Of a DNA stretch of 64,000 bases, positions 15,743 through 46,347 are shown piece after piece. The notes under the pieces were generated by a model. The model was not told the DNA's origin. It saw only the letters and a list, made by a program, of their open reading frames with translations, and did not search any database. Source of the DNA: Chloroflexota bacterium (GTDB lineage Bacteria; Chloroflexota; Dehalococcoidia; Dehalococcoidales; JACPPQ01); assembly GCA_016190925.1 (NCBI GenBank), contig JACPPQ010000109.1, positions 1,614-65,613 of the forward strand, given 5' to 3'. Position numbers and translations under genes: made by a program. Numbering within the stretch: position 1 is the stretch's first letter; each line of letters begins with the position of its first letter.

Positions 15743-17842
15743 GTGGCATATATAATAGGAATTGATACCGGAGGGACTTTCACGGATATAGTGGTCTTGA
15801 GTGAAGATGATGGAAAAGTCACAACTGACAAAGCTCCATCAACACCAAGGGATTTTTCTATCGGGGTGATAGATGCGGTCGAAAACGCAGCCCGGCAGCT
15901 CGGTATGTCCGGATTCCAACTTCTGAATAATACGGCTATCTTTGCTATTGGCACGACAGTAGCAACTAATATGTTGTTGACACACACGGGTACAAAAACC
16001 GGTCACATCACCACTAAAGGGTTTGAAGATACATTACTCATCGGCAGGGTAAATCAGAAGATAGCCGGGCTGAGTGGTATCGATGTCCTGGACCTGGCCC
16101 GTTTAGACAAAGCAAGGCCTGTTATTCCCAGAAATCTGATTAAAGGGGTGACCGAACGAATTGATTATAAGGGGGAGGTTATTGTCCCGCTGGTTTACCA
16201 GGAGACTGCACAGGTTGTCAGGGACCTGGTCGAAAAAGAACATGTGGAGGCGATTGCCGTTGTTCTCCTGTGGTCATTTATGAATCCAGAGCACGAGCAG
16301 GAAATCAAAAAGATTATCAATCAAATGTACCCGCAAATCTATGTCACCATATCAAGCGAACTGGTGCCCAAAATAAAGGAATATGAAAGAGCCGCTACAA
16401 CGTCAATCAATGCTTACGTAGGGAAAGGCACATCAAGGTATATCTCATCATTGGGAACGAGACTAAAGGAGAATGGCCTCAAGTTGCCTCCTATGATAAT
16501 GCAGAATATGGGCGGCTTTACAACCGCTGACGAAGCATGCAGGAAACCCGTTCTTACCTGCAATTCAGGACCAGCAGGTGGCGTGGTCGGCGCTCAGGCT
16601 CTGGCAAATCTCTTGGGCTATAAAAACATCATAACTACCGATATGGGTGGTACCAGTTTTGACGTAGGACTGGTGGTTAACGGAGTTTCCCAGTTTGCCA
16701 GTCAATTAATACTTGATAAATACGTCACTTTAAATCCAACCATCGATGTAACCTCCATTGGTGCTGGCTCGGGAAGTATTGCCTGGATAGAGCCGGATAC
16801 CGGCCTGTTAAAAGTCGGTCCGCAAAGCGCCGCAGCTGACCCGGGCCCTGTTTGTTATGAAAAAGGGGGGACAGAACCAACGGTAACAGACGCCAATATT
16901 GTGTTAGGCAGGTATCCCGGCCACCTCCTTGGGGGAAAAATCAAACTTAATAAAGAGAAATCATTCTCAGCTATTAAAACAAAGATTGCCGACCCATTAA
17001 AAATGGACGTTGCAACGGCGGCCATCAGCATCATCGATATAGTGGACTCGCACATGGCGGACTTGATAAGAAAGGTCACTGTAGCGAAAGGCTATGACCC
17101 TGGCGATTTTGTCATTTTTTCCTTTGGAGGAGCTGGAGCCGCCCATGTTGGCTCATATGGGTATGTGGGTTCGAAGACAGCAATCATACCTAACTTCGCG
17201 TCAGAATTCTCCGCATTTGGGATATGTTCATCTGATGTTATTCACATTAATGAGCTATCGGAGCCTATGCGATACCCGTTCGGCACGGAACGAATTACTG
17301 CAATTTATCAAGACCTGGAGAACAAGGCGCTTAAAGACTTTCAAGCAGAAGGGTTTAGCCGAGAGAACATACTTTTGACTCGTTTGGTTGATTTAAGGTA
17401 CATCGGCCAAATACAAGAGATGGCAACACGTGTTCCCGCCGGCGATTTGAATCATCAAGACATGGAAAGGGTCATCGATGAATTTGAAGCAGCATATGAA
17501 CTGAAATACGGGAAAGGCTCGGCCTATAAGATAGCGGGAATCGAGGCGACAACGTACCGAGTCCACGGAGTAGGCAAAATAATCAAGCCATCTCCGAAAA
17601 AACGCAGACGAGGTCCCGCTAATTCATCAGCGGCTATAAAAGAGAAACGGGACGTTTATTTCAGAGAATGCGACGGTTTTCGTCTTATCAATGTATATGA
17701 CCGGGGGAAACTACAACCTGGCAATATTGTGGAAGGGCCTGCCATTATAGAGGCGGTTGATACCACAGTGGTCGTTCATCCCGGGCAGACCGTTAAGTTA
17801 GATGGATATTCCAACATGATAATGCAACTGAGTCAGGGGTGA
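15743..17842 (+). CDS. Hydantoinase/oxoprolinase A family subunit (HyuA; acetone/acetophenone carboxylase beta-like)
   Basis: This 699-aa ORF starts with GTG after GAGGGAGG. The N-terminus IGIDTGGTFTD is the hallmark of the HyuA ATPase fold. Confidence 0.9.
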   Translation: MAYIIGIDTGGTFTDIVVLSEDDGKVTTDKAPSTPRDFSIGVIDAVENAARQLGMSGFQLLNNTAIFAIGTTVATNMLLTHTGTKTGHITTKGFEDTLLIGRVNQKIAGLSGIDVLDLARLDKARPVIPRNLIKGVTERIDYKGEVIVPLVYQETAQVVRDLVEKEHVEAIAVVLLWSFMNPEHEQEIKKIINQMYPQIYVTISSELVPKIKEYERAATTSINAYVGKGTSRYISSLGTRLKENGLKLPPMIMQNMGGFTTADEACRKPVLTCNSGPAGGVVGAQALANLLGYKNIITTDMGGTSFDVGLVVNGVSQFASQLILDKYVTLNPTIDVTSIGAGSGSIAWIEPDTGLLKVGPQSAAADPGPVCYEKGGTEPTVTDANIVLGRYPGHLLGGKIKLNKEKSFSAIKTKIADPLKMDVATAAISIIDIVDSHMADLIRKVTVAKGYDPGDFVIFSFGGAGAAHVGSYGYVGSKTAIIPNFASEFSAFGICSSDVIHINELSEPMRYPFGTERITAIYQDLENKALKDFQAEGFSRENILLTRLVDLRYIGQIQEMATRVPAGDLNHQDMERVIDEFEAAYELKYGKGSAYKIAGIEATTYRVHGVGKIIKPSPKKRRRGPANSSAAIKEKRDVYFRECDGFRLINVYDRGKLQPGNIVEGPAIIEAVDTTVVVHPGQTVKLDGYSNMIMQLSQG

Positions 17843-17845
17843 GAA

Positions 17846-19699
17846 ATGCGTACGAAAAACAAAATCGACCCGGTAACCTTCGAGATTCTGAGACATAGGG
17901 TTGGCGCCATTAATGATGAGGGTGCTTCCAGCTTAATGTTAGTTTCGGGGTCACCGGTGGCCAGTGAGGTTCTCGACTTTAATACCGCCTTACTTAATGC
18001 CAAAGGAGAGGTAATCGTCATCGGCCCGTACATTCTGGAGCACGGTATCTCTCTGGAGCAAATTGTAAAGTACATTATCGCTAATTATCAGGATAACCCG
18101 GGAATTAATGAAGGCGACATGTTCTTGTGCAACGACCCGTATGTGGGAGCTCTCCATCAGAATGATGTCGCCCTGGTGGCGCCGATTTACTGGGAGGGGG
18201 AGCTAGTAGGTTGGACGGGGGTTGCGGTGCATCAGCAGGATGTTGGAGGGCCTGGCAAAGGACAGGTAAGCATAGGCGCAACTTCTATTTTTGAAGAGGC
18301 ACCTGTATTCCCACCCATTAAGCTTATAGAGAGAGGAATTATCCGAAAAGACCTTGAAGGAGAGTACTTCAAACGAAGCAGATTACCAGAGCGCCTCGGG
18401 CTGGACTTGAGGGCTATGACTGCTTCAAACAACGTTACGAGCAGACGTATTAGAGAACTTATTAAAGACCGAGGAATAGAAACCGTAAAATCGACATTCG
18501 ATGCCATCATAGATTATGTTGAAGTCAAGTTAAGAAGCAGATTAATGGAACTCCCTGATGGGACCTGGCGCCATACCGCTTACCTGGATTACGGAGACAA
18601 GATTTACCCCTGTAAGTTAACCATGACCAAGAAGAAAGACAAGCTAGTTTTTGACTTTACTGGGACAGCCGCCCAGGCGCCCGCCGTTATTAATTGCACT
18701 TATCCTGTCTTGCAGGCTATTGTCACGGGAGTTTTTATGATGTACCTGGGATACGGCATATTCCCGCCGAGTTCTGGAGCAGCAGGCAGGTGTCTTGAGG
18801 TAGTTTCTGAACCCGGTACGTTTGTCCATGCGATATGGCCAGCAGGTGTGAGTAAGGCGACCACTGGTGCAAGGTATTCCGTAATCGATGCCGGAAGTGT
18901 TTGTTTAGCTAAAATGCTGGCTGCCAGTGACAAGTACCGGGACCGCGTAATGGCTCCGTGGAGGAGCTCATCTATAATAGCGGACTTATTTGGTATCGAC
19001 CAGAGGGGTGCTTACTTTGGGGCCTCAATCCTGGACTTTATGGCGGGTGGCGCCGGTGCAAGGAGCTATAAAGATGGCATCGACACCGGAGGTCAACTGG
19101 GTGCTCCGGCAATCGCCATCGCTAACGTAGAAACGCACGAGTTCCGCTACCCGATGCTTTTTTTGTACCGGAAACAAGAAAGGGATACAGGCGGGCCTGG
19201 CAAATTCAGGGGAGGAGTGGCACTGGGGTATATGTGGATGCCCCATGACGTAGAGGAAATCTCCAATGCGGTTATTCACGCCATCGGTCTGCAATCGCCC
19301 AATGGTGTAGGTATTTATGGAGGTTATCCCAGCAGTACCCATGTAGTCTCCCTCAAAAGAAATACCAATATACTGGATATCTTCAGGGATGGGAAGCTAC
19401 CGGCAAGCCTGGATGAAATTGACGGCAAATTTGAGATACCTCCTCAACTTGTAGAAACATCTCTTAAGAAGAACGACATAATTGTGGGCCTGGGACAGGG
19501 GGGAGGTGGCTATGGAGACCCAATCGAGCGCGATGCCAGGTTAGTTGCCAACGATGTAACGAATGAGTTAGTTTCCAGAGAATGTGCCAGGGATATTTAT
19601 GGGGTAGTGCTCGACCCTCAAACACTCCAGCCAGACATAAAACAGACTGAGGAACGGAGGCTTGAAATAAAGAGGGAAAGGGCGGGGTGGCAAAAGTAG
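17846..19699 (+). CDS. Hydantoinase B/oxoprolinase family subunit (HyuB; carboxylase alpha-like)
   Basis: This 617-aa ORF starts 3 nt after HyuA. The N-terminus DPVTFEILRHRVGAINDEG is typical of HyuB. Confidence 0.9.
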   Translation: MRTKNKIDPVTFEILRHRVGAINDEGASSLMLVSGSPVASEVLDFNTALLNAKGEVIVIGPYILEHGISLEQIVKYIIANYQDNPGINEGDMFLCNDPYVGALHQNDVALVAPIYWEGELVGWTGVAVHQQDVGGPGKGQVSIGATSIFEEAPVFPPIKLIERGIIRKDLEGEYFKRSRLPERLGLDLRAMTASNNVTSRRIRELIKDRGIETVKSTFDAIIDYVEVKLRSRLMELPDGTWRHTAYLDYGDKIYPCKLTMTKKKDKLVFDFTGTAAQAPAVINCTYPVLQAIVTGVFMMYLGYGIFPPSSGAAGRCLEVVSEPGTFVHAIWPAGVSKATTGARYSVIDAGSVCLAKMLAASDKYRDRVMAPWRSSSIIADLFGIDQRGAYFGASILDFMAGGAGARSYKDGIDTGGQLGAPAIAIANVETHEFRYPMLFLYRKQERDTGGPGKFRGGVALGYMWMPHDVEEISNAVIHAIGLQSPNGVGIYGGYPSSTHVVSLKRNTNILDIFRDGKLPASLDEIDGKFEIPPQLVETSLKKNDIIVGLGQGGGGYGDPIERDARLVANDVTNELVSRECARDIYGVVLDPQTLQPDIKQTEERRLEIKRERAGWQK

Positions 19700-19723
19700 C
19701 TGAATTGTTCAGGAGGCATAAAA

Positions 19724-20005
19724 ATGCAGAGGGTCAATGAATACCTGGAAATTGTTGAAGAAGCTGGGGAAAAAGCCTTCCGCTGCAAATGTGGCTATAT
19801 ACTCGGTCCAGCGACTGATAACTACAAAACGTACGCTCTTAAATGCGAGTCCCCGCTTAAAAAAGCCGGCCCTAATGTGAATCCGTATAAAGTGGGTGGA
19901 GAAAAGTTTGTTTTCAGGGAGTTTTGCTGCCCCGGTTGTTATACTTTGCTTGGTACCGATATTGCATTAAGGGGAGAACCTCTTTTGCGGGATGTGGAAT
20001 TGTAA
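19724..20005 (+). CDS. Small Zn-ribbon protein resembling the acetone carboxylase gamma subunit
   Basis: This 93-aa ORF carries the Cys pairs CKCG and CCPGC. Its position directly after HyuA/HyuB matches the three-subunit carboxylase layout. It is shorter than a canonical gamma subunit. Confidence 0.55.
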   Translation: MQRVNEYLEIVEEAGEKAFRCKCGYILGPATDNYKTYALKCESPLKKAGPNVNPYKVGGEKFVFREFCCPGCYTLLGTDIALRGEPLLRDVEL

Positions 20006-20062
20006 GTCGTCCCTGACTGAGTGTTTTGGTTTGTTTACCTTGAGGGTTAAGGAGGCGTGTTA

Positions 20063-20707
20063 ATGGTAGATTACGCAATACGCCCTGAAAAGACTGCCTT
20101 GATTCTATTTGACATGGTAAACGAGTTTATAAAGCCGGGCGCGCCGCGTGAGAATCCTGAAATCAGGGAAAAATTAGTCCCAAAACTAAGGAAACTGATA
20201 ACGGTATGCCGTACCAGTGATATTCCGGTCATTTATACTAACCATTGCCACCGCGCGGACGGAAGCGACCTGGGAGTTTTGGAAGACATTTATAAATGGT
20301 GGCGGAAAGTAAGGCCCGGGAAAGTGGCGCCGCTCATAGAAGGAACACCGGGAACAGAGGTCTATCATGAAATCGCGCCTCAAAAAGGCGATATCATAGT
20401 CAAAAAGCACAGGTTCAGCGCTTTCTGCGGCACAGACCTGGATATGATTTTGAGACATAAGGGCATAGACACAATCATACTTACCGGAGCTACGACCAAT
20501 ATCGGCCCGGAAACCACGGTGCGCGATGCCACCGTGAGAGATTACAAGGTAATTTTTCCCAGCGATGGTAATCTTTCAAGAGACCTGCCTGACATGGGAT
20601 GGGGGCCGGTGACCAAAGAGGAAATCGATAAAGTGGCATTGAGCACCATGCAGTACTGTTTTGCTCGGGTATTGACAATCGAAGAGTTGATTTCGGAGCT
20701 GTCATAG
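20063..20707 (+). CDS. Isochorismatase-fold protein lacking the nucleophilic Cys (Gly at that position)
   Basis: The track ORF starts at GTG 20057, but the ATG at 20063 has better spacing from AGGAGG. The D and K of the fold are present (ILFDM, VKKHRFSAF). The segment GATTNIGPETTVRDA aligns with G-x-x-T-x-x-C-V and places G where the Cys should be. Confidence 0.7.
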   Translation: MVDYAIRPEKTALILFDMVNEFIKPGAPRENPEIREKLVPKLRKLITVCRTSDIPVIYTNHCHRADGSDLGVLEDIYKWWRKVRPGKVAPLIEGTPGTEVYHEIAPQKGDIIVKKHRFSAFCGTDLDMILRHKGIDTIILTGATTNIGPETTVRDATVRDYKVIFPSDGNLSRDLPDMGWGPVTKEEIDKVALSTMQYCFARVLTIEELISELS

Positions 20708-20709: not shown

Positions 20710-22146
20710 GTGGGCACGGAATACAGGGACTTGAGGGAATGGCTCTCGAAAGTCGAGGAAATTGGAGAGCTCAGGCGGGGCAAATCCCTTACCGTAGAAG
20801 AAGACGCCGGCAGGGTAGCGGAGATATTGCCCGCCCTGGAAAACGGACCGGCGGTTATTCTGGATGAGTTAGTAGGGTACGAGCCCGGTTACCGAATCCT
20901 GCTTAATCTCTTCGGCAGCACTCGCAGGATAGCCCTGTCATTTGGATTTCCTATTGACTCGGATAGAAAATCGCTGCTTCAGCACTTTGAAAAGAAACTC
21001 GAAAAGATCGAGCTTATAAAACCAGCCTATGTCGAAACAGGCCCCATATTAGAAAACCGGCTGGTAGGGGATGATGTGAATCTTGACCGGTTTCCTGTTC
21101 CTCTGTGGCATAAGCACGATGGAGGTCCCTACATTGGAACAGGATGCGCGGTGGTTACGCAAGACCCTGACGACGGTTGGGTTAATTTGGGGACCTACAG
21201 AAACCAGCTCTTCGATAAGAAAACGGTGGGATTCTATATCACTTCGGCGGGGCAGGGAAGGGTTCATCGGGAAAAGTACTTCAGTCGCGGAAAACCATGC
21301 CCGGTGGCCGTTGTTTTCGGGATGGACCCTTTGCTATTTACCGGGGGTATGACTGACATTCCTCCAGGCATCTGTGAATATGATTGGGTCGGAGGTTGGC
21401 AAGGCAGGCCGGTGCAGGTTATCAAGGGACCTGTAACCGGTCTTCCGGTTCCTGCTAATGCTGAAATTGTAATCGAAGGTTTCTCTTATCCGGGAAAAAA
21501 CCGGCTCGAAGGCCCTTTCGGTGAGTCGAGGGGATATTATGCATCAGGCGCAAGCGAAGCACCTTACATCGAAGCTCAGGCCCTTTACTTCAGGAATGAA
21601 CCTATTCTTCTGGGAATGCCGTCCCAAAAACCGCCCTACGATGCAGACAAAGCTAGGCAGTATATGAAATCTGCGCTACTGAAACAACAGTTGAAGCAGT
21701 TCGGTATCCCGGGAATAACGGATGTATGGTGCTATGGAGAAGGTAGCTGCAGGCTTTTTGTGGTAGTCGCTATAAAGCAGCAGTATCCCGGACATTCCCG
21801 ACAGGCAGGTCATGCGGTTTATGCCAGCCGCGTAATCACTTACGGGCGCTATGTAATAGTGGTCGATGACGATATCGATGTTGCCGATATCAAAGATGTG
21901 CTGTGGGCTATTACAACCCGTTCTAGCCCGGCAACCTCGGTAGACATCATACACAAAGCGAGGTCATTTCAGTTAGACCCGCTAATCTCGCCTGAGGACC
22001 GGGCGGCAGGCCGATATTATGATTCTCGCGCCATCATCGATGCCACAAAGCCATTCGAATGGAAAGACCAGTTTCCTTTACCCGTACAGACAGACCAGGA
22101 GTACAGGCGGGAAACCAGAAAAAAGTTTGATTATCTTTTTAAATAG
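20710..22146 (+). CDS. UbiD-family decarboxylase/carboxylase, paralog 4
   Basis: This 478-aa ORF has a GTG start 2 nt after the previous stop. The motifs DDGWVNLGTYRNQ and EGPFGESRGYYASG are present. It is a close paralog of 59000..60439. Confidence 0.9.
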   Translation: MGTEYRDLREWLSKVEEIGELRRGKSLTVEEDAGRVAEILPALENGPAVILDELVGYEPGYRILLNLFGSTRRIALSFGFPIDSDRKSLLQHFEKKLEKIELIKPAYVETGPILENRLVGDDVNLDRFPVPLWHKHDGGPYIGTGCAVVTQDPDDGWVNLGTYRNQLFDKKTVGFYITSAGQGRVHREKYFSRGKPCPVAVVFGMDPLLFTGGMTDIPPGICEYDWVGGWQGRPVQVIKGPVTGLPVPANAEIVIEGFSYPGKNRLEGPFGESRGYYASGASEAPYIEAQALYFRNEPILLGMPSQKPPYDADKARQYMKSALLKQQLKQFGIPGITDVWCYGEGSCRLFVVVAIKQQYPGHSRQAGHAVYASRVITYGRYVIVVDDDIDVADIKDVLWAITTRSSPATSVDIIHKARSFQLDPLISPEDRAAGRYYDSRAIIDATKPFEWKDQFPLPVQTDQEYRRETRKKFDYLFK

Positions 22147-22167: not shown

Positions 22168-22950
22168 ATGGTTAATGTGAAGATATTGGGGATTTCGACC
22201 AGTGTCCGGCATGCTAATACCGAGATTGCCGTCAAGTGGGCAATGGAATCGGCGGCTGAATTGCCGGGAGTGGAGACTGAATTCGTATCGTTGGCAGGAA
22301 AGACCATATATCCCTGTAACAACTGCTATCGGTGTCTGAATTCCGAGGCGGATAACCCCTGCCCTGCCTATGACGATGATTTTAGGGAAATATGTCTCAA
22401 GATGATAGAACCAGATGGGATTATTGTAGGAGCTAATGTTGATTTTCAGACGGCTGGCGTGCTCTTTCACATTTTTAAGTCAAGGCTGATGTCTCTGGAA
22501 ATGAACAGAAAAGTTGGGCCTGAGGCTCTCCGGAACAAGGTATTTGGCTGTATTGCCGTGGGTGGCTCCCCTTATAACGGTATCAACACCGCACAACAAT
22601 ATATGATAATGTGGGCAATACAGAATGATATGCACGTGGTTGGCTGCGGCCCTGATAAAGGCATTACCTGTGGAGGCTTCCTTGGAGCGGGTGGGGCAAC
22701 TTTCCTCGTTAAAGGTTGTGCCAGAATATTCCGGGGGCGCGGGCCGCTCCTGCCCAACACGCCAGCAGAAAAGGAGGCCATAAAAGAGGATGAGGCGTGC
22801 TTCCTCCAGTGCCAGGCCCTGGGTAAAAGGGTCGCAGAAACAGCCAAGGTGATAAAGGCAGGCTTTGATACGGTACCGCCAGAGGAGATGCACTGGCAGA
22901 AGGGTCCGGTTAAGATTGGAGGATACGACTTCGGGCAGAAACAACGCTAA
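22168..22950 (+). CDS. Isf-like iron-sulfur flavoprotein (NADPH-dependent FMN reductase fold), paralog 1
   Basis: This 260-aa ORF begins KILGISTSVRHANTE, a flavodoxin-like start. It carries the Cys motif CNNCYRC-x8-C. The C-terminal block GKRVAETAKVIKAGF is shared with 30116..30913 and 48721..49506. Confidence 0.6.
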   Translation: MVNVKILGISTSVRHANTEIAVKWAMESAAELPGVETEFVSLAGKTIYPCNNCYRCLNSEADNPCPAYDDDFREICLKMIEPDGIIVGANVDFQTAGVLFHIFKSRLMSLEMNRKVGPEALRNKVFGCIAVGGSPYNGINTAQQYMIMWAIQNDMHVVGCGPDKGITCGGFLGAGGATFLVKGCARIFRGRGPLLPNTPAEKEAIKEDEACFLQCQALGKRVAETAKVIKAGFDTVPPEEMHWQKGPVKIGGYDFGQKQR

Positions 22951-22991: not shown

Positions 22992-23669
22992 TTGCCTGTA
23001 TGGGACGATGTCATCACTGAACGAGATAAACTGGTCTACAATGCCGCAGGCTTCGGCCAGAAAAGAATTGGGTTCGGCCAGAAACCTGCGCTCATTATAA
23101 TCGACGTCACATATGCGTTCGTTGGAGATAAACCGGAGCCTATCATGGAATCAATCAAACGCTTTCCCAACAGTTGTGGAGAAGAAGGTTGGGCAGCGGT
23201 CCGCCAGATTGCTTCTCTGCTGCCGGTAGTAAGAGAGAAAAACATACCCGTAATCTATACTGCCTCGGATACCGTGCAAAAGCCCTCGGCTTGGACAAGC
23301 TGGAAGAGCTCCCGTATGAAAGAGGAAAACAGGGTTGCGACGAATCAGATTGTGCGGGAGATATCGCCCTCCGCCAATGATATTTTAGTTTACAAATCTC
23401 GTGCCAGCATTTTTTATGGCACGCCGTTGCTGAGCATACTCATCTCTCTCCGTGCGGACACATTGCTTGTGTGTGGTTGCACCACCAGTGGCTGCGTCCG
23501 GGCCAGTGCTATCGATGCCTGGTCCAGTAACTTTAAGGTAGCAGTCATTGAAGAATGTGTTTTTGACCGGGCACAAACGAGCCACAAGATAAACCTCTTT
23601 GACATGAATGCCAAGTACGCTGATGTTGTCTCCGTTTCTGATATAAAGGAATATATCGCCAAGTTGTAA
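22992..23669 (+). CDS. Isochorismatase-family cysteine hydrolase (amidase-type)
   Basis: This 225-aa ORF has a TTG start 9 nt after GAGGAGG. The full D-K-C set is present (IIIDVT, VYKSRAS, VCGCTTSGCVRASAIDA). Confidence 0.75.
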   Translation: MPVWDDVITERDKLVYNAAGFGQKRIGFGQKPALIIIDVTYAFVGDKPEPIMESIKRFPNSCGEEGWAAVRQIASLLPVVREKNIPVIYTASDTVQKPSAWTSWKSSRMKEENRVATNQIVREISPSANDILVYKSRASIFYGTPLLSILISLRADTLLVCGCTTSGCVRASAIDAWSSNFKVAVIEECVFDRAQTSHKINLFDMNAKYADVVSVSDIKEYIAKL

Positions 23670-24489: not shown

Positions 24490-25677
24490 CTATTCCCTGC
24501 GACCAAAGATGCCGATTGCGGAAGTAAATGCCCCCGGCCAGCCGCCGATATTATGGACCAGCCCCACTTTGGCATTTTTAACCTGCCTGGGCCCGGCCTT
24601 GCCGCGAAGCTGCTGGCAAATCTCGAAGACCATTCTCAGGCCGCTAGCGCCGATGGGGTGGCCGAAAGATTTGAGTCCGCCATCGGGATTAGCGGGCAGG
24701 CCACCACTCAATTCAAAGAAACCGGAGTTTATGTCCTCGATGGCCTTGCCCCTGGCGCTGAATCCCAGGTCTTCATAGGTCAGCAGCTCGTTTATGGTAA
24801 AGCAATCGTGCAATTCAGCAACGTCTATCTGCTCGCGCGGAGCGGTTATCCCGGCCTCCGCATATGCCAGTTTAGCAGCGGCCAGGTTCTCTTTCCAATG
24901 CGTCCAATTGTAATCAGGGGAAATCTGGGCGTATTCATCGCCGCATGCTACACCCAGTCCTTTAATCAGTATGTAATCGTCGCGGTATTTCTCGGCTATT
25001 TCCGGACGTGTAATGACAGCCGCAGCGGCACCATCGCTCACACCACAACAATCGAAAACCCCCAGGGGCTTGGCAATGATTGGAGAATTAAGTACCACCT
25101 CCAGAGTGACCTCCTGGCGAATGTGCGCTCTAGAGTTTAGAGTCCCGTTATGATGGTTCTTAACTGCAATTTTTGCCATCGCCCTCTTGCCTTCCATGGG
25201 GTCTATTCCGTAGTGATAGAAGTACCTGTTAGCCATTAAGGCAAACTGGGACGGCATCGGCGTAGCCGGCCTCGTGTGGCTCAGTGCCACATCGGGATAT
25301 GAAGGCGGAGAGACCGGGAGGCCGGAAAAACCGTAGTCCTTCAGCTTCTCAACCCCAACGGCCAGGGCTACATCGTACGCTCCTGAAGCTACCGCGTAGG
25401 CGGCATTGCGCAAGGCGTCCGTTCCGGTGGCGCAGGCATTTTCCAGCCGGCTGATTGGAATATCTGGAATATGTAATGGAATCAGTCCTGTCCCCCGATG
25501 ATAGCCATAGCCTGTCCCAATCCACGCTGCCTGGATTTTATCGGGTGATATCTTCGCATCCTCGAACGCTTCATAACAGGAATCGACCACTAGGTCGTAG
25601 AAGCTTTTCTCCCACAGCTCACCAAACCTGGTGCAGCCCGCTCCGATGACGGCAACTTTATCTTTAATACCTTCCAT
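24490..25677 (-). CDS. SCP-x / DUF35-associated type thiolase
   Basis: This 395-aa ORF contains NACATG (nucleophilic Cys) and GHPIGASG. Its start is coupled to the stop of the upstream DUF35 fusion gene (TAG-A-ATG). Confidence 0.85.
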   Translation of the reverse strand: MEGIKDKVAVIGAGCTRFGELWEKSFYDLVVDSCYEAFEDAKISPDKIQAAWIGTGYGYHRGTGLIPLHIPDIPISRLENACATGTDALRNAAYAVASGAYDVALAVGVEKLKDYGFSGLPVSPPSYPDVALSHTRPATPMPSQFALMANRYFYHYGIDPMEGKRAMAKIAVKNHHNGTLNSRAHIRQEVTLEVVLNSPIIAKPLGVFDCCGVSDGAAAAVITRPEIAEKYRDDYILIKGLGVACGDEYAQISPDYNWTHWKENLAAAKLAYAEAGITAPREQIDVAELHDCFTINELLTYEDLGFSARGKAIEDINSGFFELSGGLPANPDGGLKSFGHPIGASGLRMVFEICQQLRGKAGPRQVKNAKVGLVHNIGGWPGAFTSAIGIFGRRE

Positions 25678-25678
25678 T

Positions 25679-27088
25679 CTAGCTTACCTCCGAGAACCTG
25701 ACAGGCATGCATTTCCAGGCGTAATTGTGGATACCTTCAGATGTAAACAGTTTTCTAAAAGTCATCTCTACGGGCATTCCGATTTCCACCTGCTTGTCGC
25801 CCCTATCGGTCATATAGGCCCACATCCTTCCGCCGCCTTCGAAGTCAATCACAGCCAGAACCATCGGTGGGTCAGGATTGGGTGTAGCGTAGTCTTCGGT
25901 GTAGGTAGTCAAAGTCGCCCTCCTGCCGCCGAAACGGTAAGTCTCGTTCTGGTCTTTGGCGTGGCAATTGTAGCATATCCGTTGGGCCGGGTACTGCACC
26001 ATGCCGCAGCTTTTGCATCTGCCACCGTGGAGACGGAGAGTCTCTTCTCTCTCTCGCCAGAGGCAGGTAACGGAAGGACTCGGCGTTGGCGGGCGGCGGC
26101 GACCGGTCACCATCTCCACCAGCCCTCTCCAGTTGAGATATTTGAGATAGTCTTTTGATACCATTTTCGATGAGACGCAGGCTGAAAATGGCGGGCTGAC
26201 GTTAACCGCCTTCGCCGACTCGAGAAGGAACACATCGGCTCCATTGCCGTAAGCACCGAGGAGGAGCTTATCCCCGGGTCTGGCTTTTTCAACAGCCGCC
26301 GTTAGCATCATCAGACTGGAAGCTGTTCCTGTATCGCCGACTGTGCCAAACATGGGGGCTTGCACCTGCTCGGCAGCGAGTCCTAGCCTCTTCCCCATCT
26401 CGCTATGGCGCCTGGCATTGGGCCCATTAAAAACAGACCTGGAGAAATCTTTGACGGACAGTCCATTGCGCTCCGCCAGGCGCGAGATAGCCCTGGGCAG
26501 CACCCTGAAATAGCCTTCGTCAAGGTTAAATCTCTCCTCCCACGAGCGTATGTATTTATCCTCGTCGCTCCGCCAGATATCATGTATTTCGTCCGCAAGG
26601 GAGAAGCTATCCCTGATTGCCACGCTAATATCCGTAGAACTGACCAGGAGAGCGGCAGCGCCATCGCCAAACTCCCTTTCGAAGTCAGAACCAGGCATGG
26701 GCAGACGCATATCGGAGGCAACTACCAGTACCTGTTTTGCCGCCCCAGCCTTAACGGCGTTCGCCGCCGCGGTCAGAGCCGTTGTACCAGCCCTCAAAGA
26801 AGTGGAAAAATCGGCGGTTAGAATATCGTCGCGAAGGTCGAGCGCGGTGGCGGCCGTCACCGATACCTGTTTCTCGCGGTAGGGGAAGGTAGTGGAGGCA
26901 AAGAAGAGTCCGTCCACCGTGTTGCGGTCTATGCCTCTCAGGCAATTCGTACCGGCAGCCACGCCCATGGTCAGGCTGTCTTCGTCGAAGTTGGCGATTG
27001 CCTTCTCACCACGCAGGCCGGCCTTGATACTACCCAGGTCGAGTCGCCATTGTGGTACATAGACACCGCAGGCCCTGATGCCCACCAT
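25679..27088 (-). CDS. HMG-CoA synthase/KAS-III-like domain fused to a DUF35 Zn-ribbon/OB-fold domain; catalytic residues apparently absent
   Basis: This 469-aa ORF has an N-terminal part that aligns by eye with archaeal HMGCS. It reads ASTTFPY where I expect GSESHPY, TSLRAGT where I expect FACKAGT, and VFNGPN where I expect VFHQPN. The C-terminus has CKSCG...CYNCH plus an OB-fold-like tail (DUF35). Confidence 0.7.
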   Translation of the reverse strand: MVGIRACGVYVPQWRLDLGSIKAGLRGEKAIANFDEDSLTMGVAAGTNCLRGIDRNTVDGLFFASTTFPYREKQVSVTAATALDLRDDILTADFSTSLRAGTTALTAAANAVKAGAAKQVLVVASDMRLPMPGSDFEREFGDGAAALLVSSTDISVAIRDSFSLADEIHDIWRSDEDKYIRSWEERFNLDEGYFRVLPRAISRLAERNGLSVKDFSRSVFNGPNARRHSEMGKRLGLAAEQVQAPMFGTVGDTGTASSLMMLTAAVEKARPGDKLLLGAYGNGADVFLLESAKAVNVSPPFSACVSSKMVSKDYLKYLNWRGLVEMVTGRRRPPTPSPSVTCLWREREETLRLHGGRCKSCGMVQYPAQRICYNCHAKDQNETYRFGGRRATLTTYTEDYATPNPDPPMVLAVIDFEGGGRMWAYMTDRGDKQVEIGMPVEMTFRKLFTSEGIHNYAWKCMPVRFSEVS

Positions 27089-27262
27089 CTATATAGTTAC
27101 CTCCTTTTTATAGTCGATGTAGTTTATCCCCTTCGGGCTACAGGAGTTTCGTGACTTGTGGTATAAATCAAGCAGCATTGTACTTCGTTATGCATGGTAT
27201 CAGTTGGATGTCCCGTTGTCAATAATTAGAATCAGTCATAATAGGCTTTTTCATGACCTTGA

Positions 27263-27419: not shown

Positions 27420-29096
27420 GTGGTGGTATCAGAAACTTTGACGAGATGCATGCTACCTATGAATGGCATTCTAAATCCTCACGTCTGCCTGTTTTACCGG
27501 GCTCGACAGCAAGCGGATGACTTCTTATTGCCTTTCCTGGAAGAGGGACTGGAGAATAACGAAGTCTGCCTTTGGGTGAGCGATAGATGTCAGGAAGCCG
27601 AAGAAGCAGCGAGAAAGCGTATCCGCAATTTTGATATTCAACTGTCTCAAGGCCGGATAGATATTATCCCGCACACGTTGTTCTGCCTTGAGAATGAAGG
27701 CTTCAACCCGCGTATAGCACTTGCATGGTGGGTTGATAGAGTTAACCAATTATCGGATGAAGGATGCGGAAGCATCCGGATTATTTGCGATGCGGGCAGT
27801 ATCAATAAGAGACTTTGCTACATGCTGAGTGACCTTCAGGATACAATGAACCGCGATAGACAAATAAGTTCAATAGCCATTCTTTGTGTTCATTCTCTAC
27901 ACAACTGCACCACATCTCAATCGATGGAAATCGCAATGAGGCATGACCTGGCACTGGTTAAACGTGGACCTAAATGGAGCTTTATCAAGAGACGCCAGAG
28001 CAAACGTGTAGATGAAGTGGTCCAGCTCCAAAGTGAGATATTATCGAAAGCTCCTGCTGGAGCACTTATTGTGCAGAGGAGCGATAATACCATAATCTAC
28101 TGTAATGCGGAACTTGAGAAAATGTTTGGCTATGAACGAGGTGAATTGCTCGGTAAGAATGTAGCCATACTAAATGCGCCGTCTGGTGGAAAATCAGCCG
28201 AAGCTATTAGGGACGAAATTGTCGATGCGCTGGAAAAATGTGGTGATTGGAGCGGGGAGCTCAAGAACATAAAGAAGGATGGCACAATCTTTTACTGTCG
28301 CTCACGGGTCTCGACATCGCAGTCGTCGCGCTATGGAAAGGTTTCCATTGCATTCCACGCAGATATTACTGAGCGTAAGCGAGTAGCCGAGGAATTACAA
28401 AGGTCGCGTGATGAACTGCGCAATCTTTCCTTGCATTTGCAGTGCGTGAGGGAGGAAGAGAGGAAACTTGTGGCGCGTCGCATTCATGACGACCTGGGGC
28501 AGTCGCTGGCGGCTCTGCGAATGGAGCTGGCAGGGATAAGAGGAAGGCTACCGCCGGGTATCGATTCACTACACGAAAGGCTGGAAGAGGCCATAAGAGG
28601 TGTCGATGGTACTATCCAACAGGCAAGAGAAATTTCGACACAGTTGAGGCCGGGGATACTGGATGATTTTGGCCTTCTGGCTGCGATGGAATGGGAGGCA
28701 AGCGAGTTCCAGAGGCGCACCGGGACTCAGTGCGCAGTCAAGGGCAATCCCGGCATTGCCATCGGAAAGAACTGCGCTGCATCTATTTTTGAGATATTTC
28801 GTGAAGCTCTGACTAATATTGCTCAGCACGCCAACGCTACCAGGGTTACAACCTGTATCAAAGTTGAGGAGGGCAAATTGGTTCTTCAGGTCAGGGACAA
28901 CGGAAGAGGAATTACAGCCGAGCAGGTATCTTCTCCAAAATCGTTTGGCCTGCTGGGAGTGAAGGAGCGCGTACGTTTCTGGGGAGGAGAGACAAAGATA
29001 AAAGGTATCACAGGTAAAGGTACTAACTTGAAGGTAATAATCCCGGTAGGGAGCATTCAGGAGGACCACCATGATAAAGATGCTTGTTGCCGATGA
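27420..29096 (+). CDS. Sensor histidine kinase: MEDS-like N-terminal domain, PAS, HisKA_3, HATPase_c
   Basis: This 558-aa ORF starts with GTG after AGGAG; starts at 27423 or 27450 are also possible. The N-terminus HVCLFYRARQQADDFLLPFLEEGLENNEVCLWV resembles a MEDS domain. A PAS region follows, with an H-box at RRIHDDLGQSL and an ATPase domain at the C-terminus. Confidence 0.8.
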   Translation: MVVSETLTRCMLPMNGILNPHVCLFYRARQQADDFLLPFLEEGLENNEVCLWVSDRCQEAEEAARKRIRNFDIQLSQGRIDIIPHTLFCLENEGFNPRIALAWWVDRVNQLSDEGCGSIRIICDAGSINKRLCYMLSDLQDTMNRDRQISSIAILCVHSLHNCTTSQSMEIAMRHDLALVKRGPKWSFIKRRQSKRVDEVVQLQSEILSKAPAGALIVQRSDNTIIYCNAELEKMFGYERGELLGKNVAILNAPSGGKSAEAIRDEIVDALEKCGDWSGELKNIKKDGTIFYCRSRVSTSQSSRYGKVSIAFHADITERKRVAEELQRSRDELRNLSLHLQCVREEERKLVARRIHDDLGQSLAALRMELAGIRGRLPPGIDSLHERLEEAIRGVDGTIQQAREISTQLRPGILDDFGLLAAMEWEASEFQRRTGTQCAVKGNPGIAIGKNCAASIFEIFREALTNIAQHANATRVTTCIKVEEGKLVLQVRDNGRGITAEQVSSPKSFGLLGVKERVRFWGGETKIKGITGKGTNLKVIIPVGSIQEDHHDKDACCR

Positions 29097-29697
29097 CCAT
29101 GCGGTTGTCCGGAAGGGGCTGAAGGAGATAGTGGGAAATATCCCCCAATTAGTCGTAGCTGACGAAGCGTGCAACGGCGACGAGGTTATGCGAAAGGTGT
29201 GGCAAAACGATTATGACCTCCTCTTGCTGGATATTACCATGCCTGGTAGAAGTGGGCTTGAAGTACTGAAGGAAGTCAAGAACTTGAAACCGCAACTACC
29301 CATTCTGATACTCAGTATTCATCCTGAAGAGCATTATGCCGTGCGCGTCCTGAGAGCGGGAGCAAGCGGATATTTAAACAAGGAAAGCGCTCCGGACGAG
29401 TTGCGCTCTGCTATTGAGAAAGTAGCGGCTGGCGGGAAATATGTCAGCCCGATTGTGGCGGAAATTCTTGCCTCCGAACTGGTAGACAGCGAAAAAGCAG
29501 CTCATGAATCTTTATCCGACCGTGAATATGAAATTATGTGCATGGTAGCTACGGGCAAAACGGTAAAGCAGGCTGCGACAGAGCTCAAATTAAGTCCTAA
29601 GACTGTGAGCAGTTATATTCACCGTATTCTGGTCAAGATGAGAATGCGAAACAAGAGCCAGCTTACAAGATATGCTATCGAACATCTTCTAATATAA
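29071..29697 (+). CDS. NarL/FixJ-type response regulator (REC + LuxR HTH)
   Basis: This 208-aa ORF contains MLVADDH...LLLLDITMPG (receiver domain) and LSDREYEIMCMVATGKTVKQAATELKLSPKTVSSY (LuxR-type HTH). It overlaps the kinase gene by 26 nt. Confidence 0.9.
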   Translation: MIKMLVADDHAVVRKGLKEIVGNIPQLVVADEACNGDEVMRKVWQNDYDLLLLDITMPGRSGLEVLKEVKNLKPQLPILILSIHPEEHYAVRVLRAGASGYLNKESAPDELRSAIEKVAAGGKYVSPIVAEILASELVDSEKAAHESLSDREYEIMCMVATGKTVKQAATELKLSPKTVSSYIHRILVKMRMRNKSQLTRYAIEHLLI

Positions 29698-30115: not shown

Positions 30116-30913
30116 ATGGTGAAGGTCAAGCTGCTGGGTGTTGCTACCAGTGCACGGCATGGTAATACGGAGATAGCAGTAAACTGGGCGCTTGAATCGG
30201 CACGCGAACTACCGGGAGTGGAAACAGAGTTCGTCTCACTCTCAGGGAAAGTGATTCGTTCTTGCCTCGATTGCACCGGGCGAGGAGGTCATCTGTGCAC
30301 TGGTGCTCCCAAGGATAATCCCTGTCCAAGGATACCGGATGACGACTTCAGAGAGATATGCCTCAAGATGGTGCAGCCTGACATAGATGGGTATATCATG
30401 GGTGCCACGGTTGATTTTCAGCAGGCAGGGGCAGCCTGGCATTGTCTTAAATCCCGTCTTGTATGTCTGGAGCACAATCAGTGGGGACCCGAGGCGTTAA
30501 GATGCAGGGTTTTTGGTGCAATTGCCATAGGAGCGGTACCCTACGGCGGCCAGAGCACTGCGTTAGAGCAGATGGTAATCTGGGCACACCAGACCGATAT
30601 GTACGTGGTAGGTTGTGGCCCGGAGCCCGGTGCGGCCTGTGGTGGTTACATCGGGGCCAGTGGAGCAACATGCCGGAGCGCTGCAACCGGTCGGATTTTC
30701 CGTAACCGCGAGCCGCTAAAGCTCGGTAGCAGGGAGGAGAAGCAAGCCATTCTGGAAGATAAGGCATGCCTGAAGCAATGCCAGAACCTGGGCAAGAGGG
30801 TTGCTGAAACTGCCAAGGTCATAAAGAATGGCTATAGTACGCTATCGCCGGAAGAGCTGCGCTGGCCCAAGGGTCCCATCCCAACCGGCGGATATGAGTT
30901 TGCCCATGAGTAA
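30116..30913 (+). CDS. Isf-like iron-sulfur flavoprotein, paralog 2
   Basis: This 265-aa ORF is collinear with 22168..22950 (MVKVKLLGVATSARHGNTEIAVNWALESARELPGVETEFVSL..., GKRVAETAKVIKNGY). Its Cys motif is the variant CLDC-x7-C-x8-C. Confidence 0.6.
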   Translation: MVKVKLLGVATSARHGNTEIAVNWALESARELPGVETEFVSLSGKVIRSCLDCTGRGGHLCTGAPKDNPCPRIPDDDFREICLKMVQPDIDGYIMGATVDFQQAGAAWHCLKSRLVCLEHNQWGPEALRCRVFGAIAIGAVPYGGQSTALEQMVIWAHQTDMYVVGCGPEPGAACGGYIGASGATCRSAATGRIFRNREPLKLGSREEKQAILEDKACLKQCQNLGKRVAETAKVIKNGYSTLSPEELRWPKGPIPTGGYEFAHE

Positions 30914-33875: not shown

Positions 33876-35471
33876 ATGGAAAAAATATTTCAGACTGACT
33901 CAGCAATAGAGGTGAAACCTCTCTATACTCCCGAAGACATGGTAGAAGCGGGCTTTGACCATAGTCGCGACCTGGGCTCTCCGGGGAGATATCCTTTCAC
34001 TCGTGGGAAGGATTCTACCGGTTACAGGAAGAATCCCTGGATAATGTACCAGTATGCTGGATTTGGCAGTGCCGAAGAAACTAACAAGCGCTATCACTTT
34101 CTCCTCGACCACGGCGAGACAGGTCTCTCTGTAGCCATTGACCTCCCCACACAGATTGGGTATGACTCGGACAATCCCCTGGCATCGGGTGAAGTCGGGA
34201 AAGTCGGTGTTCCCATAAGCTCATTGCAGGATGCTGAAGTCCTTTTCAAAGGTATTCCGCTCGATAGACCGCGCCAGATAAGTGCTACTTTCAACTCCAA
34301 TGCGCCCATCTGGCTGGCAATGATGATTGTGCTTGCTGAAAAGCAGGGGATATCTCCTCAAAAGATAGGGGTCCGGATTCAGAACGACATTCTGAAAGAA
34401 TACATCGCCAGGGGCACTTACATTTTCCCTTCAGCCCCTTCTGTCAGTATGGCTACGGACGTCATCGCCTACTGCGCGGAACACCATCCCAACTGGTTTC
34501 CGTTGACTGCCTGCGGCTATCACATCCGGGAGGCCGGAGCTAACGCAGCGCAGGAGATTGCTTTTACCCTGGCCAACGCTATTGCCTATATCGATGACAC
34601 TGTCCGCAAGGGGGTTAAACCCGAGAAGTTCATTTCCAAAATTCCCGTTTTCTTCTCCTGTGGAATGGATTTTTTCGAGGAGATAGCCAAATTCAGGACC
34701 ATGCGCCGATTGTGGTCGCGGACCATGAAAGAACGCTATCATATTGATGACCCCAATTTGCTGAGCCTTAACCTGGTTGTGTTCACTGCCGGAAGCGCCC
34801 TCACCGCTCAACAACCGATGAACAACATCGTGCGGGTGGCAGTCCAGACCCTCGCCAGTGCTATCGGCGGATGCCAGAACCTGCATACCTGCTCAATGGA
34901 TGAGGCCTATTGTACTCCTACCGAAGAAGCGGTCAAGCTGGCGTTGCGCACCCAGCAGATAATCGCCCATGAAACAGGGATAGTCAGGACTATAGACCCC
35001 TTGGGCGGCTCATATTTTATAGAATCTCTGAGCAACAAGCTTGAAGAAATTGCGAAAAACTACCTGCGGGAAATTGATGAAACTGGTGGGGCGGTTAAGG
35101 CCACTGAAAGCGGCTATTTTCAGCGGCAAATTTCCAAATCAGCATACGAATTAAATCGACAGATTGAAGAGAAGGAACGTATCGTGGTCGGTGTTAATGA
35201 GTACGTGGACGATACAGGACTGCCTATCGAGATACTCAAAGTCGACCCTGGTTTGGAAAGAAAGCAGATAGACAGTGTCCGGGCGCTGAAAAAAGAGCGA
35301 GATAATGTCAAGGTGAAGCAAGCTCTGAGAGAGCTGAAACGGGTGGCAGAGATTCGGGAGAACATAGTTCCGCCGTGCATTGAAGCTGTCAGAGCCTATG
35401 CTACGGTAGGTGAAATCTGCGATGTTCTCAGGGAAGTCTACGGTGAGTATACCGGAGCGAGTCACTTTTAG
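33876..35471 (+). CDS. Methylmalonyl-CoA-mutase-family catalytic (large) subunit
   Basis: This 531-aa ORF contains YPFTRG...GYRKNPWIMYQYAGFGSAEETN and IQNDILKEYIARGTYIFP, both typical of acyl-CoA mutases. It is the TIM-barrel part only, with no B12-binding domain. Confidence 0.85.
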   Translation: MEKIFQTDSAIEVKPLYTPEDMVEAGFDHSRDLGSPGRYPFTRGKDSTGYRKNPWIMYQYAGFGSAEETNKRYHFLLDHGETGLSVAIDLPTQIGYDSDNPLASGEVGKVGVPISSLQDAEVLFKGIPLDRPRQISATFNSNAPIWLAMMIVLAEKQGISPQKIGVRIQNDILKEYIARGTYIFPSAPSVSMATDVIAYCAEHHPNWFPLTACGYHIREAGANAAQEIAFTLANAIAYIDDTVRKGVKPEKFISKIPVFFSCGMDFFEEIAKFRTMRRLWSRTMKERYHIDDPNLLSLNLVVFTAGSALTAQQPMNNIVRVAVQTLASAIGGCQNLHTCSMDEAYCTPTEEAVKLALRTQQIIAHETGIVRTIDPLGGSYFIESLSNKLEEIAKNYLREIDETGGAVKATESGYFQRQISKSAYELNRQIEEKERIVVGVNEYVDDTGLPIEILKVDPGLERKQIDSVRALKKERDNVKVKQALRELKRVAEIRENIVPPCIEAVRAYATVGEICDVLREVYGEYTGASHF

Positions 35472-35480
35472 GTTAAGCAT

Positions 35481-39224: not shown

Positions 39225-39256
39225 TTGGTTGCCTGAACACACAAAGAGAGGTGACT

Positions 39257-42294: not shown

Positions 42295-42303
42295 CAGTGA
42301 GGA

Positions 42304-45288: not shown

Positions 45289-45310
45289 TAGTCAACCGAG
45301 GAGTGCAGAA

Positions 45311-46345: not shown

Positions 46346-46347
46346 AC

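Follow-up and report, generated by a model that had tools for sequence, protein, structure and literature searches.

In the archaeal thiolase/HMGCS/DUF35 complex (PDB 6esq), the HMG-CoA synthase (HMGCS) carries a catalytic Glu82/Cys114/His238/Asn270 tetrad (M. thermolithotrophicus numbering), and a quadruple mutant of the tetrad makes no HMG-CoA (Liao et al, Nat Commun 2026, PMC12960953). The same three-module architecture is found in the Friedel-Crafts acyltransferases PhlACB of Pseudomonas protegens (PDB 5M3K/5MG5) and MucABC of Streptococcus macacae (9VBO/9VBT). Here the HMGS-like subunit plays a structural part and lacks the catalytic Glu and Cys (PhlA, in which the loss of the tetrad residues was reported in 2018, has Cys83 and Gly115). 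PhlC is the sole catalytic subunit of PhlACB; a functional complex requires PhlA and PhlB, and the residues of PhlA make no contact with the substrate. Alone, the MucB thiolase is either inactive or insoluble; complexes that contain a dead HMGS still have the CoA chamber at the subunit interface.

Liao et al also described a Pseudomonas fluorescens complex in which a fused HMGS-DUF35 protein without the tetrad is paired with an ACAT that keeps its Cys, HDxF and GHx motifs. This complex cleaves acetoacetyl-CoA, and it makes neither HMG-CoA nor acetoacetyl-CoA from acetyl-CoA; the ACAT mutation H294Y, in the HDxF motif, nearly abolishes cleavage. The authors mined ~ 1,000 "minimal" bacterial HMGS-ACAT-DUF35 loci and proposed that the tetrad-less fusion is an "evolutionary intermediate" (PMC12960953). 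Acetoacetyl-CoA is the only substrate that has been tested for complexes of a tetrad-less HMGS-DUF35 with an ACAT. A DUF35 zinc ribbon/OB domain also accompanies an SCP2-type thiolase-fold enzyme in the benzoylsuccinyl-CoA thiolase BbsAB and the steroid side-chain aldolases Ltp2/Sal-ChsH2(DUF35), as it does in the pair considered here, but an HMGS-like domain is missing from both systems: BbsA consists solely of DUF35, and in ChsH2/Shy DUF35 is joined to a MaoC hydratase.

The window, which is the whole 64,000-nucleotide stretch of DNA analysed, comes from an uncultured Chloroflexota bacterium and contains two adjacent genes on the reverse strand. ORF A (25679..27088, 469 aa) encodes an apparently inactive HMGS-like domain fused to DUF35, and ORF B (24490..25677, 395 aa) encodes an SCP2-type thiolase; both ORFs match the initial annotation to the nucleotide. 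ORF B starts 1 nt past the ORF A stop. At this junction (25675..25691, reverse strand), the stop codon TAG (25681-25679) and the ATG of ORF B (25677-25675) are separated by a single base, and a GGAGG (25691-25687) lies 9 nt before the ATG, an arrangement that would be compatible with translational coupling. A sigma-70-like promoter match (TTGACA-17-TACCAT with an upstream TG; 27194..27222, reverse strand) sits ~ 105 nt upstream of ORF A in a 331-bp divergent intergenic region; it is a consensus match only, of a kind not enriched relative to shuffled sequence. We consider it quite probable that this bicistronic operon encodes a two-protein thiolase complex with the architecture of the archaeal thiolase/HMGCS/DUF35 complex, and that the thiolase alone is catalytic in it.

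The initial annotation had described ORF A as an HMGCS/KAS-III-like N-terminal domain followed by a C-terminal zinc ribbon/OB (DUF35) domain, and Pfam, PDB matches and a structure model all agree with that description. Four Pfam domains score above their cut-offs: ACP_syn_III (aa 93-153), ACP_syn_III_C (aa 206-284), zf-ChsH2 (aa 351-378) and OB_ChsH2_C (aa 388-445). The HMGS/FabH-like thiolase-fold domain spans aa 1-325 (26114..27088, reverse strand), and its PDB sequence matches include the PhlA-like chain 9skh_A (5.6e-32), archaeal HMGCS 6esq_I (4e-30) and PhlA 5m3k_A (2.7e-27). The DUF35 domain (aa 346-469; 25682..26053, reverse strand) consists of a rubredoxin-like zinc ribbon and then an OB fold, and matches archaeal DUF35 over its full length (6esq_E, 1e-17). 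Its zinc ribbon cysteines Cys358, Cys361, Cys372 and Cys375 (25964-26017) are invariant in a 50-sequence alignment and present in at least 128 of 131 broader representatives. AlphaFold gave a single confident model spanning both parts (pLDDT 88.3, pTM 0.91), which superimposes on 6esq_I with a target-normalised TM score of 0.87 and an rmsd of 2.3 Å (Foldseek). The linker between the two domains (aa 326-345, MVTGRRRPPTPSPSVTCLWR; 26054..26113, reverse strand) is modelled with a low pLDDT of about 68, and despite this R331, R332, P333, P338 and S339 are nearly invariant. By analogy, the linker probably corresponds to the N-terminal tail of the free DUF35/PhlB protein, which contacts both partner subunits.

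At the positions of the archaeal Glu82, Cys114, His238 and Asn270, ORF A has Thr66 (codon 26891-26893), Leu98 (26795-26797), Asn221 (26426-26428) and Asp252 (26333-26335; all reverse strand), and phmmer and MAFFT place them in identical register. In these alignments PhlA has Cys83 opposite the Glu and Gly115 opposite the Cys, in agreement with the publication of the PhlA crystal structure, and the HMGCS numbering agrees with the published E82/C114/H238/N270 quadruple mutant; we take the register to be validated because the published PhlA and HMGCS numbering is reproduced. In the model, Leu98 sits at the nucleophilic elbow, between strand 90-95 and helix 100-113. The motifs quoted in the initial annotation (FFASTTFPY, FSTSLRAGT, VFNGPNA and VGDTGTA) are all present, and the loss of catalytic residues deduced from them extends to the whole tetrad and beyond this one protein. 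Neither Glu nor Cys occurs at positions 82/114 in any of 271 aligned homologues, made up of 120 close homologues and 151 distant ones representing 50%-identity clusters (33-57% identical to ORF A). Nearly all of the 271 are full-length fusions, and the replacement residues are themselves conserved (Thr in 123/151, Leu in 105/151); proteobacterial fused homologues with 30-36% identity lack the tetrad too. A shift of the catalytic residues to nearby positions, which could have undone the initial annotation, did not emerge: the N-terminal domain has only three cysteines (Cys7, Cys49 and Cys304), and no Cys or His that might stand in for the lost ones is conserved among 131 representatives (Cys49 in 87, His228 in 43). 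ORF A also scores below the cut-offs of the NCBIfam archaeal HMGCS models NF003274 (198.4 versus 244 bits) and TIGR00748 (141.5 versus 353.35 bits).

ORF B fits an SCP2-type thiolase in its fold and motifs, with a nucleophilic Cys82 (25432-25434), an HDCF loop (aa 290-293; 24799-24810) and a GHP motif (aa 339-341; 24655-24663; all reverse strand). Pfam recognises Thiolase_N and Thiolase_C_1, the score against NCBIfam PRK06157 is above the cut-off (519 versus 403 bits), and PDB matches include archaeal thiolase 6esq_A (6e-61) and the SCP2-thiolase 6hsj (3.8e-51). The nucleophile (NACATG, aa 80-85) and GHPIGASG (aa 339-346), already noted as intact in the initial annotation, belong to a conserved set: Cys82, His290-Asp-Cys292-Phe and Gly-His340-Pro are invariant in 81/81 thiolases of related loci, ORF B included. 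Both proteins fall far below the cut-offs of the NCBIfam BbsA and BbsB models (24.2 versus 250 and 171.7 versus 750, respectively), and Ltp2 weakly matches ORF B (77 bits).

All three modules of the archaeal complex have homologues in the pair, including a thiolase with Cys, HDCF and GH, but ORF A is without the HMGS tetrad, its DUF35 is part of a fusion, and the window ORFs of at least 180 aa revealed no mevalonate-pathway gene; therefore the pair would not channel acetoacetyl-CoA into HMG-CoA. The arrangement of ORF A and ORF B is one that has already been described, and biochemically tested elsewhere, in 2026 (PMC12960953): as in P. fluorescens, HMGS and DUF35 form a single polypeptide, the E-C-H-N tetrad is gone, the adjacent ACAT has Cys, HDxF and GHx, and no PKS or NRPS lies nearby. 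This likeness is one of architecture and motif pattern. Apart from the source organism, the gene order may also differ, with the fusion first in the window whereas the paper writes ACAT-HMGS-DUF35.

ORF A is most likely a non-catalytic partner of the adjacent intact thiolase. From the described complexes, we infer that the two proteins would associate physically and that the pair would have thiolase activity. ORF B Cys82 would be the acyl-accepting nucleophile, acting together with two residues of the HDCF loop, His290 and Cys292, and with the GHP histidine His340, and would support the reversible thiolysis of a 3-oxoacyl-CoA to acetyl-CoA and a shortened acyl-CoA. ORF A, having lost the Glu/Cys/His/Asn tetrad, would not synthesise HMG-CoA; its HMGS-like dimer and covalently attached DUF35 would keep the thiolase in a soluble, competent assembly, and they probably form the other wall of a shared CoA-binding chamber. 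As a default guess, the substrate would be acetoacetyl-CoA or short-to-medium beta-oxidation intermediates. The initial annotation had likewise proposed a scaffold and no mevalonate enzyme, for which the loss of the tetrad, the intact motifs of the thiolase, the sub-cut-off HMGCS scores, the lack of mevalonate genes among the window ORFs scanned and the tested P. fluorescens pair all speak. Its suggestion of bulky 3-oxoacyl-CoAs as substrates drew no direct support. Its concept of a dead scaffold is not a new one, PhlA (2018) and the fused HMGS-DUF35 with a live ACAT (2026) having been published already, and the questions raised here are those that the two papers posed.

The pairing is conserved and widespread. 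Of the 74 loci with enough flanking sequence, 67, including 5/5 look-up loci, have a thiolase gene immediately after the fusion and in the same orientation, and at least 582 fused tetrad-less loci occur among species-representative genomes. The pair abounds in Dehalococcoidia and is also found in Proteobacteria, Actinobacteria and haloarchaea. Across 71 loci, the thiolase is the most similar to its window counterpart, with a median identity of 56.3%, followed by DUF35 (48.7%) and the dead domain (45.8%); the dead domain is under strong constraint, nearly equal to that of the thiolase. Several MAG assemblies have two or more loci on different contigs or at different positions, and one locus has two tandem pairs. 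The homologues lie in variable beta-oxidation-type clusters with genes for 3-hydroxyacyl-CoA dehydrogenase, acyl-CoA dehydrogenases, SDR plus MaoC, and CoA ligases, and some distant members have SDR and SCP2 domains fused onto them. A cluster on a Rhodococcus plasmid suggested a possible link to the ibuprofen ipfDE genes. That the tetrad-less fusion is so common and so constrained modestly strengthens the case for a dead condensing-enzyme domain as a stable, required partner of a thiolase.

The HMGS-like domain could also be more than a scaffold. Pocket residues near the former active site (Thr66/Thr67, Glu72, Lys73, Asp93, Ser97, Arg99 and Arg128) are strongly conserved among the 131 representatives, a pattern that suits a CoA-chamber role but would also suit a ligand site or an activity so far unrecognised. 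The pocket (Thr66/67, Glu72, Lys73, Arg99, Arg128) might then bind acyl groups or CoA and set the specificity of the pair, or carry a Cys-independent activity or a regulatory ligand site. Conservation of these residues in 107-127 of 131 diverse representatives without the tetrad points in this direction, as does the interfacial chamber of dead-HMGS complexes, and multiple loci per MAG and tandem pairs suggest specialisation. However, conservation around the elbow may simply maintain the fold, the dimer or the thiolase interface, and the PhlACB substrate is touched by no residue of PhlA; we regard this reading as unlikely. A broader proposal, which we put forward tentatively as a possibility, is that the tetrad-less fusion is no transitional relic of the kind proposed by Liao et al but an old subunit, kept by selection, that a major class of beta-oxidation thiolases cannot do without. 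The class would extend across Proteobacteria, Actinobacteria, haloarchaea and, with several copies in each genome, Chloroflexota, and the pocket (Thr66, Glu72, Lys73, Arg99, Arg128) would help to bind substrate and to tune the specificity of each paralogous pair.

Another reading is a Friedel-Crafts C-acyltransferase of the PhlACB/MucABC type, acting on a phenolic or tetramic-acid-like molecule and perhaps tied to the nearby aromatic-acid (UbiD) genes. PhlA-like chains (9skh, 5m3k/5mg5) are among the best PDB sequence and fold matches of ORF A, the tetrad-less state and a GDTG motif are common to ORF A and PhlA, and UbiD-family and other aromatic-type catabolic genes are abundant in the window. 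Yet those acylases, whose thiolase subunits transfer acetyl groups to small-molecule acceptors, have lost HDxF (PMC12960953), whereas ORF B keeps its HDCF, and it is nearer to archaeal thiolase than to PhlC (210 versus 104 bits). Their DUF35 is a separate protein rather than part of a fusion, and their genes lie in PKS or NRPS-PKS clusters; the scanned window ORFs contain no PKS or NRPS domain. With UbiD adjoining the homologues in 0/85 loci as well, an acyltransferase is quite improbable. The window neighbours of the pair in general (UbiD, isochorismatase, nitroreductase and MEDS kinase) are not conserved beside homologues, and the window offers no context that would place the pair in a pathway.

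That ORF A is instead an active Claisen-condensing enzyme, HMG-CoA synthase or another, with shifted catalytic residues, and the pair an archaeal-type mevalonate entry module, is hardly credible: archaeal HMGCS PRK04262 is its best NCBIfam match (1.6e-58), 6esq_I is its closest fold and many members are named HMG-CoA synthase by NCBI and JGI, but ORF A falls under both curated cut-offs, both alignments put Thr/Leu/Asn/Asp at the tetrad, Cys49 is present in just 87/131 representatives with no conserved His, the archaeal quadruple mutant and the P. fluorescens complex yield no HMG-CoA (PMC12960953), and a scan of the window ORFs of 180 aa or longer revealed no gene of the mevalonate pathway. ORF A itself has a 100% identical counterpart at NCBI under the name [quoted passage not shown]. 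The main value of the analysis is for annotation: the HMG-CoA synthase label carried by ORF A and many relatives in NCBI and JGI would falsely point to a mevalonate pathway in Chloroflexota/Dehalococcoidia MAGs.

Several other candidates were rejected. The hydantoinase/acetone-carboxylase-like genes (15743-20005) and UbiD were considered as suppliers of beta-keto acids, and 0/85 loci had either family within 6-10 kb of the pair. The divergent MEDS-PAS kinase and the LuxR regulator were dropped as candidate controllers of the pair: they occur beside homologues in just 1-2 of 85 loci. A supposed second copy of the pair at 40885-43461 (ORFs of 469 and 385 aa) encodes FAD oxidoreductases, and tblastn found no second copy in the window. 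P0174 (723 aa) was left out; it has unrelated ATP-grasp and molybdopterin-binding domains and is probably a chimeric gene call. A UbiD gene adjoins the pair on one haloarchaeal plasmid.

ORF A (469 aa; 25679–27088, minus strand) and ORF B (395 aa; 24490–25677, minus strand) lie head to tail. The TAG stop codon of ORF A (25681–25679) is separated by one base from the ATG of ORF B (25677–25675), and a GGAGG lies inside the 3′ end of ORF A, 9 nt 5′ of that ATG. Pfam assigned the first ~ 300 aa of ORF A to ACP_syn_III and ACP_syn_III_C, and aa 351–445 to a ChsH2-type zinc ribbon with OB fold (DUF35). When PDB sequences were searched with phmmer, the N-terminal domain matched the PhlA-like chain 9skh_A (5.6e-32), the archaeal HMG-CoA synthase (HMGCS) of the M. 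thermolithotrophicus complex (6esq_I, 4e-30) and PhlA (5m3k_A, 2.7e-27), and the C-terminal domain matched the full length of the archaeal DUF35 subunit 6esq_E (1e-17). The best Foldseek matches of an AlphaFold model built from a 50-homologue alignment (pLDDT 88.3, pTM 0.91) were PhlA-like 9skh, 6esq_I (target-normalised TM 0.87, rmsd 2.3 Å), PhlA and MucA.

The catalytic tetrad of archaeal HMGCS, Glu82/Cys114/His238/Asn270 (M. thermolithotrophicus numbering), corresponds to Thr66/Leu98/Asn221/Asp252 in ORF A. The model puts Leu98 at the nucleophilic elbow of the thiolase fold, between strand 90–95 and helix 100–113. The register was the same by phmmer and in three MAFFT alignments, and we regard it as valid because Cys83 and Gly115 of PhlA fall at the Glu and Cys positions, matching the PhlACB crystal structure report, and because the HMGCS numbering agrees with the published E82C/C114G/H238Q/N270D mutant. 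We found Cys7, Cys49 and Cys304 in the N-terminal domain, and no substitute catalytic Cys or His was conserved among 131 diverse representatives (Cys49 in 87/131, His228 in 43/131). The initial annotation had described ORF A as apparently catalytically dead and outside the mevalonate pathway. The first claim is borne out by the residues at the tetrad positions, with no rescue by catalytic residues at shifted sites. An NCBI protein with 100% identity to ORF A carries the name “hydroxymethylglutaryl-CoA synthase family protein”; that ORF A is a working HMG-CoA synthase is very unlikely, given the lost tetrad, the sub-threshold family scores and published loss-of-function data. The second claim is supported, and no mevalonate-pathway gene was seen among the window ORFs scanned (at least 180 aa). 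In practical terms, “HMG-CoA synthase” labels on the ORF A family are wrong.

In the alignments, tetrad loss is a trait of the family. Glu and Cys were absent at the two key positions in all of the 120 closest database clusters (120/120; 50–73% identity) and likewise in 151/151 aligned sequences, ORF A included, from a search of 50%-identity cluster representatives (33–57% identical to ORF A). The replacements are conserved, with Thr at the Glu position in 123/151 and Leu at the Cys position in 105/151, and the former His and Asn positions vary. Zinc-ribbon residues Cys358/361/372/375 are near invariant. Across 71 loci, median identity to the window proteins was 45.8% for the tetrad-less domain, 48.7% for DUF35 and 56.3% for the thiolase, so that the tetrad-less domain is strongly constrained and not decaying.

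ORF B belongs to the SCP2-type thiolases: it has Pfam Thiolase_N and Thiolase_C_1 domains and scores 519 bits with the NCBIfam model PRK06157 (cut-off 403). Its top PDB match was the archaeal complex thiolase 6esq_A (6e-61), followed by SCP2-thiolase 6hsj, BbsB 7pxp_C and PhlC. Cys82, His290-Asp-Cys292-Phe and Gly-His340-Pro were invariant in 81/81 thiolases of related loci (ORF B counted), in agreement with the initial annotation, in which the partner keeps its nucleophile and GHPIGASG. In 67 of the 74 loci with enough flank, the next gene downstream was a thiolase gene in the same orientation, a count that takes in every one of the five metagenome or MAG contigs inspected.

In the archaeal complex, thiolase and HMGCS dimers are joined by DUF35 around a fused CoA-binding site. 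The bacterial Friedel–Crafts acyltransferases PhlACB and MucABC retain this architecture with an inactive HMGS-like subunit, a concept that dates from the PhlACB structure of 2018. An acylase of this type is an unlikely identity for the window pair, since ORF B keeps the HDCF motif, is far nearer to the archaeal thiolase than to PhlC (210 versus 104 bits) and has no PKS/NRPS context among the window ORFs scanned, and since DUF35 is fused in ORF A.

Biochemistry on a tetrad-less HMGS-DUF35 fusion beside a fully equipped thiolase (ACAT) already appeared in January 2026, in a study that mined 1,030 bacterial loci in which HMGS, ACAT and DUF35 genes are co-located, 1,001 of them without secondary-metabolism genes (Liao et al, Nat Commun 2026; PMC12960953). 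The P. fluorescens representative combines a fused HMGS-DUF35 lacking the tetrad with an ACAT carrying Cys, HDxF and GHx; given acetyl-CoA, its complex yielded no HMG-CoA and no acetoacetyl-CoA, but it did cleave acetoacetyl-CoA, and cleavage was almost gone in the HDxF mutant H294Y (PMC12960953). The window pair shares these defining features and is a new Chloroflexota member of the published type. At the level of architecture, it is thus quite likely that catalysis rests with ORF B alone, as a reversible 3-oxoacyl-CoA thiolase, and that ORF A is its non-catalytic partner. From the homologues, we infer a physical complex of ORF A and ORF B with thiolase activity, in which ORF A would provide assembly, solubility or conformational support for ORF B and probably forms part of the CoA chamber. 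The initial annotation went further, to a scaffold for a thiolase acting on bulky 3-oxoacyl-CoAs; such a substrate is neither supported nor excluded at this locus. There is a residual possibility that ORF A is more than a scaffold and that its pocket residues contribute to specificity or ligand binding, as Thr66/67, Glu72, Lys73, Arg99 and Arg128 are conserved.

We detected at least 582 homologous loci in species-representative genomes. Among those listed, the majority belong to Dehalococcoidia and other Chloroflexota, with further hosts in Armatimonadota, Nitrospinae, Desulfobacterales, Myxococcales, Actinomycetes, Binatia and one Bathyarchaeales MAG; several MAG assemblies hold two or more loci on separate contigs or positions. 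Full-length fused homologues also occur on megaplasmids, in hosts including Sphingomonas, Azoarcus sp. KH32C, Rhodococcus, Mycobacterium avium, Variovorax and many haloarchaea, and were tetrad-less in 5/5 checked. This analysis adds that the tetrad-less fused group is large and uniform, that it is abundant and multiple in Dehalococcoidia, and that haloarchaea carry it too, all of which argues against a short-lived evolutionary intermediate.

The genes adjoining the pair in homologous loci are variable and mostly of β-oxidation type: 3-hydroxyacyl-CoA dehydrogenase, acyl-CoA dehydrogenases, SDR plus MaoC dehydratase, and CoA ligases or transferases. Three distant proteins extend the tetrad-less HMGS-DUF35 at the C-terminus, P0181 (911 aa) with SDR and SCP2, P0190 (722 aa) with two SCP2 domains and P0265 (800 aa) with SDR. 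Their domain logic is similar to that of peroxisomal MFE-2/SCPx, and the added SDR and SCP2 lipid-carrier domains link the module, in those lineages, to β-oxidation of lipophilic acyl-CoAs. Individual loci differ in layout. On a Dehalococcoidales MAG contig (L004, 4258–9640), two pairs stand in tandem downstream of an acyl-CoA dehydrogenase gene. On two haloarchaeal plasmids (L088, L089), the thiolase comes first with a 4-nt overlap, within β-oxidation clusters, and one of these pairs adjoins a UbiD gene. The Bathyarchaeales locus (L058) encodes a tetrad-less fused form that shares 44% identity with ORF A; gene transfer or an error of binning could account for it. On Rhodococcus qingshengii plasmid pdjl-6-4 (L090, 3103–9558), an AMP-binding ligase and ring-hydroxylating dioxygenase α and β genes precede the fused gene and thiolase, a layout we take to resemble the ibuprofen ipfABDEF cluster (CoA ligase, dioxygenase, IpfD thiolase, IpfE).

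The window neighbours UbiD, isochorismatase, FMN reductase and nitroreductase were not conserved next to homologues. The nitroreductase gene is convergent with the pair and ends at 24469. Divergent from the operon, on the plus strand (27420–29697), are two overlapping genes, one for a histidine kinase that has a MEDS sensory domain at its N-terminus and also PAS, the other for a LuxR-type response regulator; this pairing was seen in 1–2/85 homologous loci and is not conserved. A sigma-70-like match lies 5′ of ORF A (27222–27194); such matches were no commoner than in shuffled sequence. Three consecutive plus-strand genes (15743–20005) encode hydantoinase A (699 aa), hydantoinase B (617 aa) and a small acetone carboxylase γ-like protein (93 aa), arranged as in an acetone/acetophenone-carboxylase-type ATP-dependent carboxylase; a conserved association of these genes with the thiolase pair was seen in 0/85 loci.

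The window holds four UbiD-family (de)carboxylase paralogues (5451–6917, minus; 12427–14037, plus; 20710–22146, plus; 59000–60439, minus). The third is in a same-strand run with two isochorismatase-like hydrolases (20057–20707 and 22992–23669) and an FMN_red-type flavoprotein (22168–22950), which by eye looks like a close paralogue of that at 30116–30913; another is encoded at 48721–49506. Genes for a methylmalonyl-CoA-mutase-like large subunit, a B12-binding/glyoxalase fusion and an AMP-binding CoA ligase (33876–37870, plus strand) represent the families found directly upstream of a homologous pair in another locus (L003, 2331–6932), and the two sets may belong to a common acyl-CoA rearrangement pathway. 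Three aldehyde:ferredoxin oxidoreductase (AOR-family) paralogues (43477–45288, 46324–48228 and 50236–52116, plus strand) are accompanied by a class-III aminotransferase gene (37764–39224) and two genes whose products have a 2,4-diaminopentanoate-dehydrogenase-like domain at the C-terminus (39251–40267 and 45257–46345).
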